The notes below the pieces were generated by a model that was not told the origin of the DNA, searched no databases, and saw only the letters and a list, made by a program, of their open reading frames with translations. Positions 2,384 through 55,377 of a DNA stretch of 64,000 nucleotides are shown in pieces; the stretch's first letter is position 1, and every line of letters begins with the position of its first letter. The stretch lies in NCBI GenBank assembly GCA_016874675.1, contig VGTL01000002.1:9021-73020 (forward strand), given 5' to 3'. Source of the DNA: Methanobacteriota archaeon. Lineage in GTDB: Archaea > Thermoplasmatota > DTKX01 > VGTL01. A program made the position numbers and the translations under genes.

Positions 2384-5236
<2,853 letters not shown>

Positions 5237-43134: not shown

Positions 43135-44997
43135 GTGGCCTCCTTCTTCCTCGACATCGGGATAATCATCTTCCTGGCCTTCCTGGGGGCGTTCCTGGCG
43201 GGCCGGGCGCGCCTGTCCGCCATAGTGGGCTACATCATCGTGGGCATCCTCATCGGGCCGTCGATGAACCTCAACCTCTTCGGCATGGAGTACCGCGGGC
43301 TGGTAACCAACACCGACTTCATTACGCAGATGTCCCGCCTGGGGCTCATGTTCCTGCTTTTCTTCACGGGGCTGGGGTTCTCCACCTCGGCGCTCAAGAC
43401 CACCTGGAAGCCGGCCATCCTGCTTGCGGTCTCCGACGTCCTGCTCAACCTCTACGTCGGCTTCATCATAGGCTCGCTCTTCGGCTGGCCCCTGCCAGAC
43501 ACCCTCTTTTTGGCGGCGATAATCGGGATGACCTCGGTGGCGGTGGCCGCCAAGTCGGCCCTAGAGGGCAAGCAGCTCTACCGCAAGGAGTACAGCTACC
43601 TTTTCAGCACGATGATAGTCGAGGACTTCATCTCGATAGTGCTGCTCACCTTCGCCAGCGCGTTCGTGCTGGGCAACACCCTGCGGCCCGAGCAGCTGGT
43701 CAACATGGGCTTCGGCGTGGTCATAATATACTCCTTCTTCTTCGTCCTGGCGCTCTACATCGCGCCCAAGGCGTTCCACTACTTCGAGAGGATACAGGGC
43801 AACGAGCTCTTCGTGCTCTTCGCCCTGAGCGTTGTCTTCCTTTCGTCCGCGTTCGCCGACTTCCTGGGCATACCTCCGGCCATCGGCGCATTCCTCGTGG
43901 GCATGGCCTTCGCCGAGACCGCCCTCAAGGAGAAGCTCGAGCGGCAGATGCTCTCTATGAAGGACGCCTTCGTGGCCATCTTCTTCGTGACGTTCGGGAT
44001 GCTCGTCGACCCGGGAAGGATAGGGGACGTCCTCCCCATGGTGGCGCTGGCGGTGCCCCTGGTCATAATGAACGAGGTCTTCATACTGGGCGCGCTGGCC
44101 TACATCGTCGGATTCACGCGCCGGGCCGCGGTCTCCATCGGCGCCGGCTTCCTGGGGCGGGGCGAGGACGCCGTGCTGTTCGCCTCGGTGGGCTCGGGGC
44201 TTCAGGACCCCGCCACCGGGAAGCCCATACTGAGCCGCGCCGGGGATATCAGCCCGTTCACCGGGGTCTTCTGCTTCGTGATGAGCATCCTGACGCCTTT
44301 CATGATGAGGCTCTCCATAAGGCTCGCGGACCTCATCGGCAGGGTGCTGCCGGATTCGGTCAAGTTCGGAGGGAGCCTGCTCTCCCGTGTGCTGCGCGCC
44401 ACGATGATGGTGTCCGGTTTCTCGCCCACCGGCTCCGAGAAGCGGCTGCTCCTTGCGATGCTGGCCTACGGGGCCTCCATCTGCGTCACCCTGGTGACCC
44501 CGGGGATGCTGCACATCGTGTCGGCCTCCCTGAGCCTGGTGCTGCTGCTCCTGGTGTGGCGGGGGCTCCACCGCTTCTTCGGGCCGCGGGCGGGGGCCGT
44601 GGACCTCCAGGACCAAGACATCCTCAGGCCGGACCAGGCCGCGGTGGGGCGCTTCGCCACCCTTGTCTCGGTGTCCCTGCTCGCCATGCTTTTCGTGACG
44701 GCAGCCTTCTGGAGGTACAGCTGGCAGGCGGCGCTCCTTGTCAATATCGGTCTGCTGGCCGGCGTGTTGCTGTCGATGAGGCTGGTATATCGCCACCTAA
44801 AGGTCCGGGCCCCGCCCATGAGCAAGGAGCACATCCTGCCGACCGGCAGGCCCCAGCCGCGGCGCGAGCCGCTGGGCTTCGAGCCGCGCAAGGATAGGCG
44901 GAAGGTGAGGCGGCCCATGAGGCCGCGACCGGTGCCCCGGGAGTACCGGCCGGTGCCCAGGGAACTGCTTCTGCCCCGCTCCGGGCCCAGGCGCTAG
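43135..44997 (+). CDS. monovalent cation:proton antiporter-2 (CPA2/Kef-type) family transporter with long C-terminal region
   Basis: 12-13 TM Na_H_Exchanger-like region (LGLMFLLFFTGLGFS; GAFLVGMAFAETAL). GTG start. ~190 extra C-terminal residues with additional hydrophobic segments. Confidence 0.75.
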   Translation: MASFFLDIGIIIFLAFLGAFLAGRARLSAIVGYIIVGILIGPSMNLNLFGMEYRGLVTNTDFITQMSRLGLMFLLFFTGLGFSTSALKTTWKPAILLAVSDVLLNLYVGFIIGSLFGWPLPDTLFLAAIIGMTSVAVAAKSALEGKQLYRKEYSYLFSTMIVEDFISIVLLTFASAFVLGNTLRPEQLVNMGFGVVIIYSFFFVLALYIAPKAFHYFERIQGNELFVLFALSVVFLSSAFADFLGIPPAIGAFLVGMAFAETALKEKLERQMLSMKDAFVAIFFVTFGMLVDPGRIGDVLPMVALAVPLVIMNEVFILGALAYIVGFTRRAAVSIGAGFLGRGEDAVLFASVGSGLQDPATGKPILSRAGDISPFTGVFCFVMSILTPFMMRLSIRLADLIGRVLPDSVKFGGSLLSRVLRATMMVSGFSPTGSEKRLLLAMLAYGASICVTLVTPGMLHIVSASLSLVLLLLVWRGLHRFFGPRAGAVDLQDQDILRPDQAAVGRFATLVSVSLLAMLFVTAAFWRYSWQAALLVNIGLLAGVLLSMRLVYRHLKVRAPPMSKEHILPTGRPQPRREPLGFEPRKDRRKVRRPMRPRPVPREYRPVPRELLLPRSGPRR

Positions 44998-45980
44998 TAC
45001 TCGTCGTGGATCTCGTCCATGTCCGCCACGGGCTCGATGAAGCAGTCCAGCACCGTCGGGATTTCGCGCTTTATGCGCTTTTCGACGTTCTGGAGCAGGT
45101 CGTCGAGCCGCTCCAGCCTAAGCTCGGGATCGAACTCCACCAGGAGGTGGACTATTATCCGGTTGGAGCCCATGAACATGGTCTTGATGCTCAGGACGTC
45201 CTTGATTCCGGGCGCCGCCCGGGCTATGTCGGCGATCTTGCGCTCCGTGCCCTCGTCGGCCGCGGCACCGATGAGCTTCTCCCGGTTCTCCATCGCCAGG
45301 ATTACGGCCAGCACGCCCAGGACGACCCCGATGATTATCGAGGCGTAGCCGTCGAGGACGTGGATGTCGGTCTGGTGCACCACGACGAGGAACCCCAGCG
45401 CTATGGCGACCCCGGAGAGCGCCACTGTGTCCTCGACGAAGACGAGCTTGAGGGTCGGGTCGTGGACCTTGCGGAAGGCCTTGAAGGGGTTTTTGGTCTT
45501 GAGGCCGCTCAGCCTGTTGGCATACCTCAGAAGGCCCTGGACTGCGAATGACACCGACACCACCTCCAGGCAGACCGATGCCACCAAGGCCACGATGGCG
45601 ACCTCGATTGTATCCACGCTCTGGTCGTGTGTTATCTGGTCGAACCCGCGGTATATCGAGCTGACCGATATCACCCCCAGCATGAAGACCGCGGCGACGA
45701 ATGCCCAGAAGTAGACCTCCTTGCCGTACCCGAAAGGGTGGGTCCGGTCGGCCGGGCGCGAGGCCAGATAGAGGCCGATGAGGAGAAAGACGCTGTTCAT
45801 CGCGTCGGCCAGGCTGTGGAGGGTTTCCGAGAAAAGGGCCGCGGAACCGGTGATGTGGGTCGAGACCGCCTTGATGATGAACCCGAGGATATTGGCGGCG
45901 AACGCTATCTTGACCGGCCTGCTGCCGAACTGAATCTCAGTGGCCAACCGTCTTCGTCCTCCACCAGGTGGATAGGGCAT
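44994..45980 (-). CDS. cation diffusion facilitator (CDF) family metal efflux transporter
   Basis: Six TM helices with the CDF signature (SAALFSETLHSLADAMNSV; HQTDIHVLDGYASI) and C-terminal cytoplasmic domain. Start ATG 45980. Confidence 0.8.
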   Translation of the reverse strand: MPYPPGGGRRRLATEIQFGSRPVKIAFAANILGFIIKAVSTHITGSAALFSETLHSLADAMNSVFLLIGLYLASRPADRTHPFGYGKEVYFWAFVAAVFMLGVISVSSIYRGFDQITHDQSVDTIEVAIVALVASVCLEVVSVSFAVQGLLRYANRLSGLKTKNPFKAFRKVHDPTLKLVFVEDTVALSGVAIALGFLVVVHQTDIHVLDGYASIIIGVVLGVLAVILAMENREKLIGAAADEGTERKIADIARAAPGIKDVLSIKTMFMGSNRIIVHLLVEFDPELRLERLDDLLQNVEKRIKREIPTVLDCFIEPVADMDEIHDEY

Positions 45981-46022: not shown

Positions 46023-46153
46023 GAAAGGCAGAAAGGCAGGAAGGCAGCAAGGCAGCAAGGGGGAACGGAACGAACCGTCGTCCCCTTGTTGCCCTGCTGC
46101 CTTTCTGCCTTGCTGCCTCCCTTGCTGCCTTGCTGCCTTTCTCCCTTGCTGCC
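46023..46153 (+). repeat. heptad-array hairpin repeat between CDF gene start and tRNA-Ile
   Basis: gaaaggcagaaaggcaggaaggcagcaaggcagcaaggggg; spacer; ccccttgttgccctgctgcctttctgccttgctgcctcccttgctgccttgctgcctttctcccttgctgcc. Confidence 0.85.
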
Positions 46154-46211
46154 CGATCTTCCCTACTGGAAATATATTAAAATACCCCGGTGTTATTTAG
46201 TGCCCCGCAAC

Positions 46212-46286
46212 GGGCCCATAGCTTAGACTGGCTGGAGCGCCCGGCTGATAACCGGGCGGTCGAGAGTTCAAATCTCTCTGGGCCCA
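46212..46286 (+). tRNA. tRNA-Ile (anticodon GAT)
   Basis: 75-nt cloverleaf: acceptor GGGCCCA/TGGGCCC, anticodon stem CCCGG/CCGGG with loop CTGATAA, T-arm GAGAG-TTCAAAT-CTCTC, discriminator A. Confidence 0.85.
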
Positions 46287-46469
46287 TGCATCCCCGAAGG
46301 GGATGCAGGCGCCTCAGCGCACAGAGATTTCAAGATTTTGATGAAACTTTTAATTGCGAACAAAGGAAGGAATTAAAAGTTTCGTTCAAATCTCTCTGGG
46401 CCCATGCATCCCCGAAGGGGATGCAGGCGCCTCAGCGCACAGAGATTTCAAGATTTTGATGAAACTTTT
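46267..46469 (+). repeat. 85-bp tandem direct repeat (2 copies, 118-bp period) including the last 20 nt of tRNA-Ile; att-site-like
   Basis: Copy 1 at 46267..46351 and copy 2 at 46385..46469 are identical: ttcaaatctctctgggcccatgcatccccgaaggggatgcaggcgcctcagcgcacagagatttcaagattttgatgaaactttt. Each contains the 9-bp-stem hairpin gcatcccc-gaa-ggggatgc. Confidence 0.85.
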
Positions 46470-46623
46470 TGACCGCAAGCCTCGCGCCATGCGCCTCGAA
46501 CCGGGCGCCCGCGCCATCGGCCCGCCCGCGCAAACGACGGCTGCCGCATCGCCCATTCCGGCGTCCGGACCCTGGACCGTCCCGGCAAAAGGTTGATAAT
46601 GTCGGAGCCTGGTCCACATACCC

Positions 46624-47469
46624 GTGTCGGCGCCTTCTGCGGAGAAAACGGTGACCTTCACCTCCATAGCGTGGAAGGGCGCCTACAAGAAGGCGTTCAT
46701 CCTGCTGGCAGTCCTGGCGGTCGCCGGTACGGTCGCCGGGGCCTCGATGGTCCCCATCCGTCCGCCGCAGCGCGCGGGGACCACCGAGCGCGATTATGTC
46801 CCCATCGAGGTGCCGGACCATGCCGAGCCGCCCATGAAGATCCAGATCTCCCACGGCTTCCGGCTCGTCACGGTGCCGTTCTCGGGCTACTTCGCCGTCG
46901 ACGACGGGGTGGAGGAGATCAGCTATAACCTCACAATCGAGGACGGAAACGGCCGCCTGGTCGCGGAGGATTTCTCGCGCCTCCACGCCCCCCAGGAGCA
47001 CGCATTCAGCGGTTCCGCGACCGAGGAAACGGTCGTCGTGACCAGAGAGCACGAGTTCTCGCTTCCGCCCGGCCAGTACATCGTGGAGATCGGGTCCGAC
47101 CACCCGGTGGACTATCGCATCGAGCAGAAGTCGAGGTACTTCGCCCCCGGGGCGCTGCTCCTGGGGCTGGGCATCTCCTCGTTCATCCTCATCGGGGCCC
47201 TGGCGATGATCGTGCTCCGAAAGCGCGATTCGCTGCGTGTGTCACAGGTCGCAGCCGGGCCTGTCTCAGGGCCGGCCGCCCCGCCGACAATGGCCCCTCC
47301 CGCGGCCGCATCCCGGGCGACCGACCCCCGCCGCTCCTCGCTGGAGTACGTGCCGCCCCAGTTCTTTGCCGAGTTCATCTGCACCGCCTGCGGGTGGAGC
47401 ATCCGGAACCCCCCGGTCAAGGGGATCATCGTCTGCGACCGGTGCGGCGAGATGGGGCGCCTCCTCTGA
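46624..47469 (+). CDS. hypothetical membrane-associated protein with C-terminal zinc ribbon
   Basis: N-terminal hydrophobic segment AFILLAVLAVAGTVAG, second TM GALLLGLGISSFILIGALAMIVL, and C-terminal CTACG...CDRCG (CxxC-x17-CxxC). GTG start. Confidence 0.5.
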   Translation: MSAPSAEKTVTFTSIAWKGAYKKAFILLAVLAVAGTVAGASMVPIRPPQRAGTTERDYVPIEVPDHAEPPMKIQISHGFRLVTVPFSGYFAVDDGVEEISYNLTIEDGNGRLVAEDFSRLHAPQEHAFSGSATEETVVVTREHEFSLPPGQYIVEIGSDHPVDYRIEQKSRYFAPGALLLGLGISSFILIGALAMIVLRKRDSLRVSQVAAGPVSGPAAPPTMAPPAAASRATDPRRSSLEYVPPQFFAEFICTACGWSIRNPPVKGIIVCDRCGEMGRLL

Positions 47470-47475
47470 GGGCGG

Positions 47476-48189
47476 TCAGGCCCGCTCCCGGAGGATCCCG
47501 AACAGAACGAAGAGCGGCGCCGACAAGAGCGTTATGAGCCCGGAGGACAATGCCGCGGTCTCGGAGAAGGTCAATGCTATCCCGGCCGTCAGGGCCCCGT
47601 TCTTTATCCCGATGCACACCGCCAGCGCCTTGGCGTTTGGCAGCGAAAGGAGCCCCCGTCCCGCCATCCTCCCGAGGGCCCACCGGAGGCCGAAGAAGAA
47701 GGCGTACTCCTGGAGTAGGGCCAGCCCCACCAGGACCGGGACGGAGAGGAGGTCGACCCCCCCGAGGCTGGAGGCGATCACGCCCCACATGAAGAAGAAG
47801 AACAGTATCGAAGTGGCGATCCTCTCTCCGGGGAGCGGGCCTTCTATTAGGGAGGGGCGGGCCCTGCGCAGCGCGAGCGCTACGAGCACCGGGAGCCCGA
47901 CGAGCGCGCCGGCGTTGAGGGCTATCGTCCAGACGGGCACGGTCACGGCCCTCCCGACCAGCGCCTCCAGCATCGCCGGCACGAGCAGGGGAGAAAGCAG
48001 CGTGGACACCACCGACACCATCGCCGCCAGCACCCGGTTGCCGCCGATCATGTCCGTGAAGAATGGGGCAAGCACTATGGCGGGCGACAGGGCGGCCAGC
48101 GTCGCGCCGAAGAGGATGTCGGGCGCAAGCCCCGCCGCCAGGGCCGCGCCCCAGATCGAGAGCGGGACGGGGCCGTAGAGGAACACCAA
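47476..48189 (-). CDS. bile acid:sodium symporter (BASS)-like / AEC-type membrane transporter (possibly N-terminally incomplete)
   Basis: 237-aa polytopic membrane protein. TTG start. A 77-aa ORF (48075..48308) in another frame upstream also looks membrane-like. Confidence 0.45.
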   Translation of the reverse strand: MVFLYGPVPLSIWGAALAAGLAPDILFGATLAALSPAIVLAPFFTDMIGGNRVLAAMVSVVSTLLSPLLVPAMLEALVGRAVTVPVWTIALNAGALVGLPVLVALALRRARPSLIEGPLPGERIATSILFFFFMWGVIASSLGGVDLLSVPVLVGLALLQEYAFFFGLRWALGRMAGRGLLSLPNAKALAVCIGIKNGALTAGIALTFSETAALSSGLITLLSAPLFVLFGILRERA

Positions 48190-48361
48190 CCCGGCGGCCA
48201 GCAGGTCCGGTCTCCGAAGGAGGGTACGAGCAGGCCGAAGAGGGTGCCCAGGAAGGTGCCGGCGGGGAAGGCCCAGAGCTCGATCCTCTGGCGGGTGGAC
48301 TCTTCCACGGGCGGGAAACGGGGTCAGGTAGAAATAGATTGTTGCAGGCCGAAGGGTCCGG

Positions 48362-49528: not shown

Positions 49529-49547
49529 GGCGTTCCCCCGGTGCCAT

Positions 49548-49642
49548 TGCGGTTGCGGGGATTCGAACCCCGGTTTGAAGCTGGTCCCGGCGCGCGGTGG
49601 CGCCATGGGAAGCTCCAGTCCTAACCACTAGACTACAACCGC
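49548..49642 (-). tRNA. tRNA-Gly (anticodon CCC) with a ~23-nt canonical-position intron
   Basis: Reverse complement: GCGGTTG TA GTCT AGTGGTTA GGAC T GGAGC TTCCCA [TGGCGCCACCGCGCGCCGGGACC] A GCTTC AAAC CGGGG TTCGAAT CCCCG CAACCGC A. Intron follows anticodon-loop position 37. Confidence 0.65.
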
Positions 49643-49662
49643 ACGGAGCTGGGGATATCTGG

Positions 49663-55271: not shown

Positions 55272-55360
55272 GGGGAAGGGGAGCGGGCAGCGGGCAGCGG
55301 GCAGCGGGGAGCGGTGACGGAACGAATCCGTCCGTCCACCGCTCCCCGCTGCCCCGCTGG
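55272..55360 (+). repeat. GGGCAGC heptad-array hairpin (15-bp perfect stem cagcggggagcggtg / caccgctccccgctg)
   Basis: ggggaaggggagcgggcagcgggcagcgggcagcggggagcggtgacggaacgaatccgtccgtccaccgctccccgctgccccgctgg. Confidence 0.85.
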
Positions 55361-55377
55361 ATCAATTGGAGGGAATG

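Follow-up and report, generated by a model that had tools for sequence, protein, structure and literature searches.

A conserved and structured tandem array of tRNA-fragment units behind the tRNA-Ile(GAT) gene of a Thermoplasmata archaeon

Introduction

Duplicated tRNA 3' ends are routinely read as attachment (att) scars and used to delimit genomic islands, and an exact duplication of this kind lies behind the tRNA-Ile(GAT) gene in the stretch of archaeal DNA analysed here (64,000 nucleotides of contig VGTL01000002.1, assembly GCA_016874675.1; hereafter the window). Does it mark a site at which an element was once integrated, as a preliminary description of the window had proposed, or did it arise in another way? 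We found that the att-like signature belongs to a conserved, structured and copy-number-variable module without an element, one that island callers and tRNA annotators would misread. On balance, comparison of the sequences favours a lineage-specific birth-and-death tandem array on the 3' side of tRNA-Ile(GAT), with selection on RNA hairpins, as its probable nature.

The repeat and its parts

The tRNA-Ile(GAT) gene, identified by ARAGORN and by the Rfam tRNA model (65.2 bits), is 75 nt long, intact and intron-less and does not encode CCA (46212-46286, plus strand). A repeat search of the window revealed an 86-nt direct repeat, 100% identical at 46266-46351 and 46384-46469, with a start-to-start distance of 118 nt and a 32-nt spacer (46352-46383). 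Each copy contains tRNA-Ile positions 53-73 (21 nt, from G53) followed by 65 nt of trailer. The exact duplication of the tRNA 3' end noticed earlier is therefore real, although it had been given as 85 nt with 20 nt of tRNA and a 33-nt spacer. The orphan 21-mer occurs twice in the window, against an expectation of 0 from 100 shuffles, and no partial copies of the other tRNAs of the window (Thr, Cys and Gly) were found. The 118-nt array was absent from the Tandem Repeats Finder output for the window. The parts of the locus, all on the plus strand, are as follows.

46168..46211 (+): conserved promoter-like block upstream of tRNA-Ile, with the TATA-like A/T-rich ATATATTAAAATA
46212..46286 (+): tRNA-Ile(GAT) (ARAGORN, Rfam)
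46266..46351 (+): repeat copy 1, tRNA positions 53-73 plus 65-nt trailer, 100% identity
46287..46307 (+): trailer hairpin H1, U-GCAUCCCC-GAA-GGGGAUGC-A, with compensatory changes in 5 of 8 pairs across lineages
46309..46320 (+): trailer hairpin H2, GCGC-CUCA-GCGC, predicted in the minimum-free-energy fold
46322..46398 (+): long hairpin H3, consisting of lower stem, 5' internal loop, upper stem and loop
46352..46383 (+): 32-nt spacer unique to unit 1, comprising the "alpha" loop and 3' arm of H3
46384..46404 (+): orphan of tRNA-Ile positions 53-73, GTTCAAATCTCTCTGGGCCCA, where ARAGORN calls no tRNA
46384..46469 (+): repeat copy 2, comprising the orphan, H1 (46405-46425), H2 (46427-46438) and the 5' arm of H3
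46470..46488 (+): remnant of the second unit's "beta" loop, TGACCGCAAGCCTCGCGCC, with homology to H3 loops in L071, L082, L091 and L092 (L-numbers are our labels for comparison contigs or loci)

From its sequence, we infer that the block at 46168..46211 acts as an archaeal promoter. The H1 core, GCATCCCC-GAA-GGGGATGC, lies at 46288-46306 and again at 46406-46424; the hairpin had been credited with a 9-bp stem, and it is indeed present in both copies, but with a stem of 8 bp, or 9 bp if the flanking U-A pair is counted. Overlooked previously was a 13-bp inverted repeat between the end of copy 1 and the spacer (GAAACTTTTAATT / AATTAAAAGTTTC), which together with the orphan T-loop/T-stem strand makes one long hairpin, H3. 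A complete 118-nt unit consists, in order, of the last 21 nt of the tRNA, H1, H2, the 5' arm of H3, a variable loop and the 3' arm of H3, and because no gap separates this 3' arm from the following copy of the tRNA 3' end, the T-loop/T-stem strand of that orphan takes part in the pairing of H3.

The order of segments in the window is A-s-A-t, in which the sequence after copy 2 (t) is unlike the spacer (s), an order that sits poorly with a simple A-s-A-s tandem duplication. The second unit is truncated at its beta loop and has neither a 3' arm nor a further orphan, so that the window haplotype comprises one complete unit (A/alpha) and one truncated terminal trailer (A/beta). Counted by eye, the window spacer shares 30 of 32 nucleotides with the unit of L081 and about 26 of 32 with the units of L098.

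Conservation, copy number and decay in related lineages

Comparison loci were retrieved by three routes, namely synteny through a 73-aa neighbour, a metagenome scan for the orphan junction, and homologues of the cation-diffusion-facilitator (CDF) protein encoded on the promoter side; L071, L072 and L078 were retrieved by synteny and not by the pattern requiring an orphan. We found that no fewer than 12 related Thermoplasmata lineages have the trailer-hairpin-orphan unit behind tRNA-Ile; their CDF proteins, where enough of the gene is present, are 64-77% identical to that of the window. The units are distributed as follows.

L071 = L073 = L085: two full units
L078, L080, L081 = L084, L082, L086, L087, L091 and L092: one unit each
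L094 (CDF protein same as that of L092): at least two identical units
L098: three units, with a period of exactly 118 nt
L072: one unit, with a degenerate orphan
L083: partial unit

The number of units per lineage thus ranges from one to three, and it varies within species; for example, L092, with one unit, and L094, with at least two, share the identical CDF protein P0019. The units of L094 and L098 are true head-to-tail units. L071, from ENA, is identical to L073 and L085, from JGI, showing that the architecture was assembled independently in another species. The more distant L095-97 (CDF identity of 66%) and L100 (64%) have H1 and H2 only, without H3 or orphan, and nothing comparable was found at about 35 other Thermoplasmata tRNA-Ile loci from GTDB. 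A search of the GTDB representative genomes for the 21-mer returned 60 loci, none syntenic and none with two copies, at which only the tRNA aligned. Presence in many lineages and absence from others thus show the duplication to be old, conserved and confined to one clade.

Units adjacent to the tRNA match it and one another exactly or almost exactly. In L098 the orphans change outward from a perfect copy to AAATCGATTT and then to GAATCGATCTGGGCCAC, those of L091 and L092 carry one mutation each, and terminal trailers are truncated at lineage-specific points. Four H1 sequence types and at least two H3 loop types (alpha and beta) could be distinguished, and these reassort, giving A/alpha, A/beta, B/alpha and B/beta.

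Hairpin structure and covariation

In the window, the lower stem of H3 consists of 8 bp between (C)AGAGAUUU and the orphan's AAAUCUCU(G); the 5' internal loop contains the conserved UUUGAUGAAAC, the motif UUUGAUGRA being invariant in this loop across the aligned units; and the upper stem consists of 16 bp (GAUGAAACUUUUAAUU / AAUUAAAAGUUUCGUU) closed by a 15-nt loop (46356-46370). RNAalifold, applied to 10 units, returned H1 with 8 bp, a short GC-rich H2, a long H3 and an acceptor-like pairing of the palindromic UGGGCCCA ends. When pairs were counted on the aligned units, 93.7% of cells were paired, against 26-52% in slid controls, and 13 pairs had changed on both sides, against 7.5 +/- 1.6 after shuffling, with 0 of 500 shuffles reaching 13.

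The distal stem of H3 was counted with an anchor in each unit (14 units from 12 lineages), and column-wise pair counting on the 14-unit alignment was dropped, since indels shift H2 and the distal H3 stem. Contiguous pairs numbered 7-11 in 11 of the 14 units and 4-5 in L072 and two L098 units, with a shuffle P of 0.006 or less for every one of the 14. The distal arms vary yet stay complementary, for example as AATT/AATT, AAACC/GGTTT, GAGCG/TGCTC and CGACCGC/GTGGTCG, among others. By inspection, H2 has a 4-5-bp GC-rich stem in all lineages; it aligns poorly and lies outside the statistics. The acceptor-like stem is invariant, without covariation, and is lost in L072.

In four lineages, sense-strand folds had energies of -43.7 to -60.2 kcal/mol (z of -4.3 to -6.5) and antisense folds -39 to -48.4 kcal/mol (z of -2.4 to -4.0), the sense strand being the more stable by 5-12 kcal/mol, and several of the conserved pairs are G-U. 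The strand bias and the conserved G-U pairs point to a constraint at the RNA level on the tRNA-sense strand. Compensatory substitutions and strand-specific stability, by which structured RNAs in general are recognised, were thus both present. No Rfam 15 family other than tRNA matched at gathering or permissive thresholds, the other matches being generic hairpin noise on the 8-mer palindrome, and a covariance model of the unit, run on the window and on 0.5 Mb of loci, found no copy away from tRNA-Ile.

Haplotypes within the species

The JGI and Logan assemblies include contigs that match the window at 99.7-100% identity. Compared with the window, L061 and L062 have a longer upstream 8-mer palindrome and one or two extra "F" units, and their identity to it stops at ...CAAGATTTT, where sequence resembling an insertion sequence (IS) begins; in L074 the other IS end abuts AAGATTTTGATGAAACTTTTTGACC, the second trailer of the window. 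The IS-like element is bounded by terminal inverted repeats of 23 bp (GTCCCGTATCAAAGTCGGCTAGC / GTCCCGTCTCAACCTTGGCTAAC) and flanked by a target duplication of 8 bp (AAGATTTT); it has an open reading frame (ORF) ending 20 nt ahead of its right end, and its target in the trailer corresponds to window positions 46332-46339 / 46450-46457. Its ends are located as follows.

L061:13979-14105 and L062:13264-13365: left end of the IS-like element
L074:13513-13637: right end of the IS-like element

The element is absent from the window, and its end gave 0 matches in viral or plasmid-like contigs. The sequences of L061/L062 and L074 fit a haplotype with F units and the IS element but without an orphan unit, whereas the window lacks the F unit, has a promoter block that is a hybrid of the two promoter variants in L061/L062, and carries one complete unit. 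These differing haplotypes indicate that the locus is polymorphic within the species.

An F unit (about 171 nt) has its own promoter-like block; tRNA positions 1-25 follow, then an insert of 80 nt with two hairpins, and finally positions 26-44. Such units precede the intact tRNA-Ile at L061:13680-13850 and L062:12794-13135 and were also observed in L071, L072, L078, L080, L081, L082, L086, L087 and L100; they are absent from the window. The insert (about 80 nt, two hairpins) has 9 covarying pairs, and in L078 the 3' piece extends to position 56. The copy number of F is 0, 1 or 2 in the window's species, and more decayed copies are present in L082, L086, L091 and L092. F units may be relics of an intron-bearing tRNA-Ile gene or may represent a small RNA.

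Genomic context

The window is chromosomal DNA of a Thermoplasmata archaeon, with a GC content of about 66%. It contains genes for GGGP synthase/PcrB, UbiA, polyprenyl synthase, UvrABC, a ribosomal-protein/SecY cluster and an XPD-like helicase, the closest tRNA matches are in Thermoplasmata metagenome-assembled genomes (MAGs), and no compositional island was found at the tRNA-Ile locus. For the 8 ORFs lying up to about 5 kb from the tRNA, Pfam gave transporters, polyprenyl synthase and unannotated proteins, with no integrase among them, and a Pfam scan of the 63 large ORFs of the window gave housekeeping functions (UvrABC, ribosomal proteins, SecY) among the 25 of 82 families listed. A phmmer search of the window found no homologue of the integrase of L030, a Methanomethylophilaceae locus described below, and the gene tables of syntenic loci contained no recombinase, up to 10 kb in six complete loci. 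The earlier statement that no integrase lies nearby thus held in these searches, and the suggestion that one targeting tRNA-Ile might be sought elsewhere led to none in the phmmer search or among the Pfam families listed for the window. Neither the tRNA end with its trailer nor the orphan 21-mer matched any viral or plasmid-like contig (0 matches). The two genes that flank the module are as follows.

44994..45947 (-): CDF gene, conserved neighbour on the promoter side and anchor for syntenic loci
46651..47469 (+): gene for a 272-aa membrane protein with a Cys-rich C-terminus; the longest ORF (281 aa) starts at 46624, and there is no Pfam match

The latter, a membrane/Zn-ribbon ORF, had been suspected of being residual cargo, a view which the comparison contradicts. 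Its exact 272-aa product is present on same-species contigs, homologues (35-53% identity, tblastn) occupy the same position in L082, L083, L087, L091 and L092, and although tblastn gave only a 41-aa match in L098 and none in L086, the gene tables and a reading of the sequences place an equivalent 289-305-aa gene at that position in both. From these sequences, the gene is a conserved chromosomal neighbour and neither cargo nor part of the array. The second supposed piece of cargo, an SBF-family transporter (47476-48361), is indeed truncated, with 237 aa in the window against 309 aa in relatives, but the missing stretch of about 100 nt is near the 5' end of the gene, in the N-terminal part far from the tRNA. 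In addition, an adh_short gene between the SBF transporter and polyprenyl synthase in L071, L078 and L092 is absent from the window (the flank of L091 is too short to judge). Loss in the SBF/adh_short region was probably a deletion, the remaining transporter gene possibly being a pseudogene; the shortening is unrelated to the tRNA side, and the transporter is hence not cargo.

Several further features of the region were observed. The whole tRNA-Ile module (F, tRNA and 3' units) is inverted relative to the flanking genes in about half of the lineages, L072, L080, L081/L084, L095-97, L098 and L100 having the orientation opposite to that of the window, L071, L082, L086, L091 and L092. In L080 a different gene lies on the upstream side of the module, and gene content between polyprenyl synthase and CDF varies across lineages. 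The tRNA-Ile locus is a rearrangement hot spot, at which many contigs that reach it end, and the array explains the assembly breaks at tRNA-Ile in this clade. Upstream of tRNA-Ile, the window contains a long imperfect palindrome of 8-nt tandem repeats, GGCAGCAA/TTGCTGCC (46023-46153), which is longer in L061/L062, and palindromes of other 8-mers occupy the same place in L091, L092 and L098; a similar palindrome of 8-nt repeats, GCGGGCAG, follows tRNA-Cys at about 55290-55365. The tRNA-Gly(CCC) gene at 49547-49643 (minus strand) is 97 nt long, with an odd 4-base anticodon in the ARAGORN call and an Rfam tRNA score of 55 bits, whereas the syntenic tRNA-Gly genes of L072, L076 and L095 are 72-74 nt long and have no insert, which suggests that the window gene carries an intron of about 23 nt.

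Origin and turnover of the array

If the locus is a birth-and-death array, a single ancient rearrangement at the T-loop would have created the first orphan, either because an integrase made an insertion of which only the att arms later survived or by duplication through a template switch. Unequal homologous recombination between tRNA plus trailer and orphan plus trailer could then add or remove 118-nt units, while gene conversion from the tRNA gene would homogenise the proximal copy, and such conversion or recent homogenisation may account for the identity of the window's two copies over all 86 nt; orphans farther out and the last trailers decay. H1 and H2, which are also kept by relatives without an orphan, may form the 3' trailer of pre-tRNA-Ile and work in its processing or in termination, and H3 may have been retained because it sequesters the orphan tRNA strand, which would prevent the orphan from mis-pairing with the real tRNA body, and because it carries transcription-ending T-runs. 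The preliminary description had offered local tandem duplication as its alternative, which comes close to the comparative data apart from the A-s-A-s order, which the window does not have.

Several observations weigh against this reading. Proximal trailers often differ in type from terminal ones (A then B in L081, D then C in L086, B then C in L098), a mixture unlike simple local duplication that calls for inter-lineage recombination or insertion of foreign units. Runs of T4-T5 in the 5' arm of H3 may end transcription before the orphan, weakening an RNA-level role for H3, and the acceptor-strand part of the orphan is invariant in most lineages and hence uninformative on structure. Eight of the loci were fetched by a perfect-orphan pattern, which introduces an ascertainment bias. 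Every fetched same-species contig breaks or diverges at the locus, at 46054/46061 on the left and 46450 on the right, so that the window's own junction has no independent confirmation.

Foreign insertion is central to one competing explanation, which we consider unlikely though worth serious thought, in which the 118-nt units are miniature non-autonomous integrative elements, or attP-only remnants, inserted at the T-loop by a tyrosine recombinase encoded elsewhere, new units entering beside the tRNA and older ones being pushed outward and decaying. It would explain why the breakpoint at tRNA positions 53-57 equals the att core of the L030 element and falls in the T-stem region, the commonest attP class in Islander (PMC4383910), as well as the fresh proximal and decayed distal units, the mosaic trailers, whose type beside the tRNA is often foreign to that at the end of the array, the near-identity of the alpha spacers of the window and L081 despite CDF proteins that are only about 69% identical, and the inversion of the whole module relative to its flanks in several lineages. 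However, no recombinase was found near any locus or in the window region, neither orphan nor unit occurs in the viral or plasmid-like contigs, the covariance model placed no copy away from tRNA-Ile, and a conventional double-stranded circular intermediate could not be as small as 118 bp; moreover, the reassortment of H1 and loop types means that units are not inherited as intact modules, and identical internal units in L094 and L098 are as expected from unequal crossing-over. A bolder and more doubtful proposal is that a trans-acting recombinase inserts hairpin units of about 118 nt singly at the tRNA-Ile T-loop, each with a replacement 3' end for the tRNA. Entry could be as folded single strands, in the manner of integron attC sites or CTX-phi; units would be exchanged among related Thermoplasmata while older ones decay distally, and the upstream F units would be the mirror image of the same process. 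If this were true, the units would constitute a previously undescribed class of gene-less integrative mini-elements in archaea and a live model of tRNA gene fragmentation.

The covariation could instead mean that the unit specifies a functional structured RNA, transcribed along with tRNA-Ile and freed by RNase Z; joined by the palindromic GGGCCC acceptor strand from the copy before it, this RNA could form a tRNA-like four-way junction of acceptor-like stem, H1, H2 and H3. RNAalifold gives exactly this cloverleaf-like topology, H1 and H3 covary strongly, folding of the sense strand is favoured and UUUGAUGRA is conserved in the internal loop, but we give the idea little credence, as copy number varies within species, one haplotype apparently has no unit, distal copies decay, the acceptor-like stem shows no covariation and is lost in L072, and Rfam has no matching family. 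Nor does the unit have its own promoter; T-runs precede its 3' half, the 3-4-nt H2 loop is not anticodon-like, and the C-box-like UGAUGA has no D box (CUGA) in the right place. A faulty assembly, in which a de Bruijn-graph loop or a chimera of co-occurring strains made copy 2, is very unlikely: all other same-species contigs break at the positions given above, and the window's own contig was missing from the matches of the genome and metagenome pattern scans although a match was expected, but reads must contain the spacer, whose sequence is unique, different pipelines produced the architecture in more than 10 other lineages (with identical contigs from ENA and JGI among them), and repeat collapse removes copies rather than adding them. 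Least probable of all is the fresh scar of the preliminary description, according to which an element was recently excised or deleted between the copies in this strain and the neighbouring ORFs are its cargo. The two copies are perfectly identical and the locus is polymorphic in the species, yet precise excision leaves one attB where there are two copies here, conservation of the 32-nt spacer extends to other species (L081 and L098), the neighbours are conserved chromosomal genes and there is no integrase, so that the comparative data already contradict it. What stood of the integration footprint was its start in the T-loop and the precedent of L030; a recent remnant is contradicted by the presence of the unit in at least 12 lineages. 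An occupied site, for which a comparison with related strains had been advised, did not appear either, since relatives differ by 118-nt units or an IS insertion and by no gene-bearing element.

The locus presents a tRNA gene ringed by its own partial copies, with 3' units and, in sister strains, 5' F units, that turn over within a species, so that models of tRNA disruption, intron gain and split-tRNA origin in archaea become directly testable in natural populations.

Comparison with known systems

In integron arrays every short unit closes with an imperfect hairpin whose structure, rather than its sequence, is conserved, and the present array resembles them in this and in having its newest-looking unit beside a fixed site and its older units distally. 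In contrast to integrons, it has no R''/R' core sites (RYYYAAC / GTTRRRY) and no intI, its units contain no ORF and its fixed site is a tRNA T-loop; we therefore rejected an attC identity, the feet of the hairpin, GATGAAAC / GTTTCGTTC, being off the consensus and no integrase having been found. Small RNAs may also be co-transcribed with tRNAs and freed by RNase Z or RNase P, as in tRNA-snoRNA dicistrons and mascRNA-type elements. The unit is similar in that a structured RNA abuts the tRNA 3' end and has a tRNA-like 3' portion, but it lacks the features of box C/D and H/ACA RNAs and is variable in copy number. As a box C/D sRNA it was discarded because, apart from UGAUGA at 46339-46344 and GUUC on the opposite strand, it has no CUGA or GA and no Rfam match, and by inspection the defining features of an H/ACA RNA and of a T-loop intron with a bulge-helix-bulge were likewise missing. 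A miniature inverted-repeat transposable element or a dispersed palindromic element (an IS200/IS605-type palindrome-associated transposable element, PATE) was rejected because, in the window (64 kb of this genome) and the 0.5 Mb of loci, units occur only behind tRNA-Ile.

Split, permuted and multi-intron archaeal tRNAs (Chan et al. 2011, PMC3218864; PMC4033280) are alike in having separate 5' and 3' pieces and structured flanks. Here, unlike in split tRNAs, tRNA-Ile is intact, the pieces vary in number and are dispensable, and the window has no 5' piece. This class was rejected on the intact gene and because inspection, without a dedicated bulge-helix-bulge search, revealed no complementary leader and trailer and no bulge-helix-bulge. 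Closer is a Caldiarchaeum population with tRNA gene disruption and scattered tRNA fragments (Sugahara et al. 2012, PMC3293823), in which a single tRNA locus is heterogeneous and recombination at the tRNA gene has been invoked, and in which a promoter-proximal 5' tRNA fragment with an insert lies upstream of the intact gene, as do the F units of L061/L062 and others. In Caldiarchaeum, fragment and gene are separated by 1.8 kb through a recombinase-encoding element (PMC3293823), whereas in the present lineages the fragments are tens of nucleotides from the gene, on both sides and in tandem, with no recombinase.

As for integrated elements, a MAG of Methanomethylophilaceae, distant relatives within the Thermoplasmata (L030), has 4.45 kb between tRNA-Ile(GAT) and an 18-nt orphan, AAATCTCTCTGGGCCCAC, which begins at position 57.

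L030:618-5163: L030 element; one of its ORFs (3103-5019) has a Phage_integrase domain and another is RNase_T-like (exonuclease)

From its sequence, this is a genuine occupied att site in tRNA-Ile. The T-loop is a common crossover site for tyrosine integrases, and the breakpoint of the window repeat, at tRNA positions 53-57 in the T-loop, matches the att core of the L030 element, which makes an integrase-mediated founding event plausible. The sublocation classes of Williams (2002) are cited in this literature, and displaced tRNA fragments normally mark the ends of islands (PMC4383910; PMC9897764), with archaeal examples in the latter. As in an att pair, the window has a direct repeat of the 3' part of a tRNA gene that starts at a stem-loop crossover site, but att pairs bracket kilobases with their own integrase, whereas only 32 nt separate the two copies here and no recombinase gene was found within about 5 kb of them or in the gene tables of syntenic loci; nor do relatives provide an occupied and an empty form of the site, and the pair was rejected as an integrase att pair on both counts. 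Compared with the att-derived fragments catalogued in Islander, the orphans are alike in being repeats of a tRNA 3' end from the T-loop region located after an intact tRNA, such fragments are known to form tandem arrays at a single tRNA gene, and L030 offers a case at tRNA-Ile(GAT) itself; unlike them, the window repeat reaches 65 nt past the tRNA, and the unit is conserved across species with structure-preserving substitutions. We therefore file the locus as a conserved, structured, integrase-less tandem module, a variant of tRNA-gene-fragment repeats.

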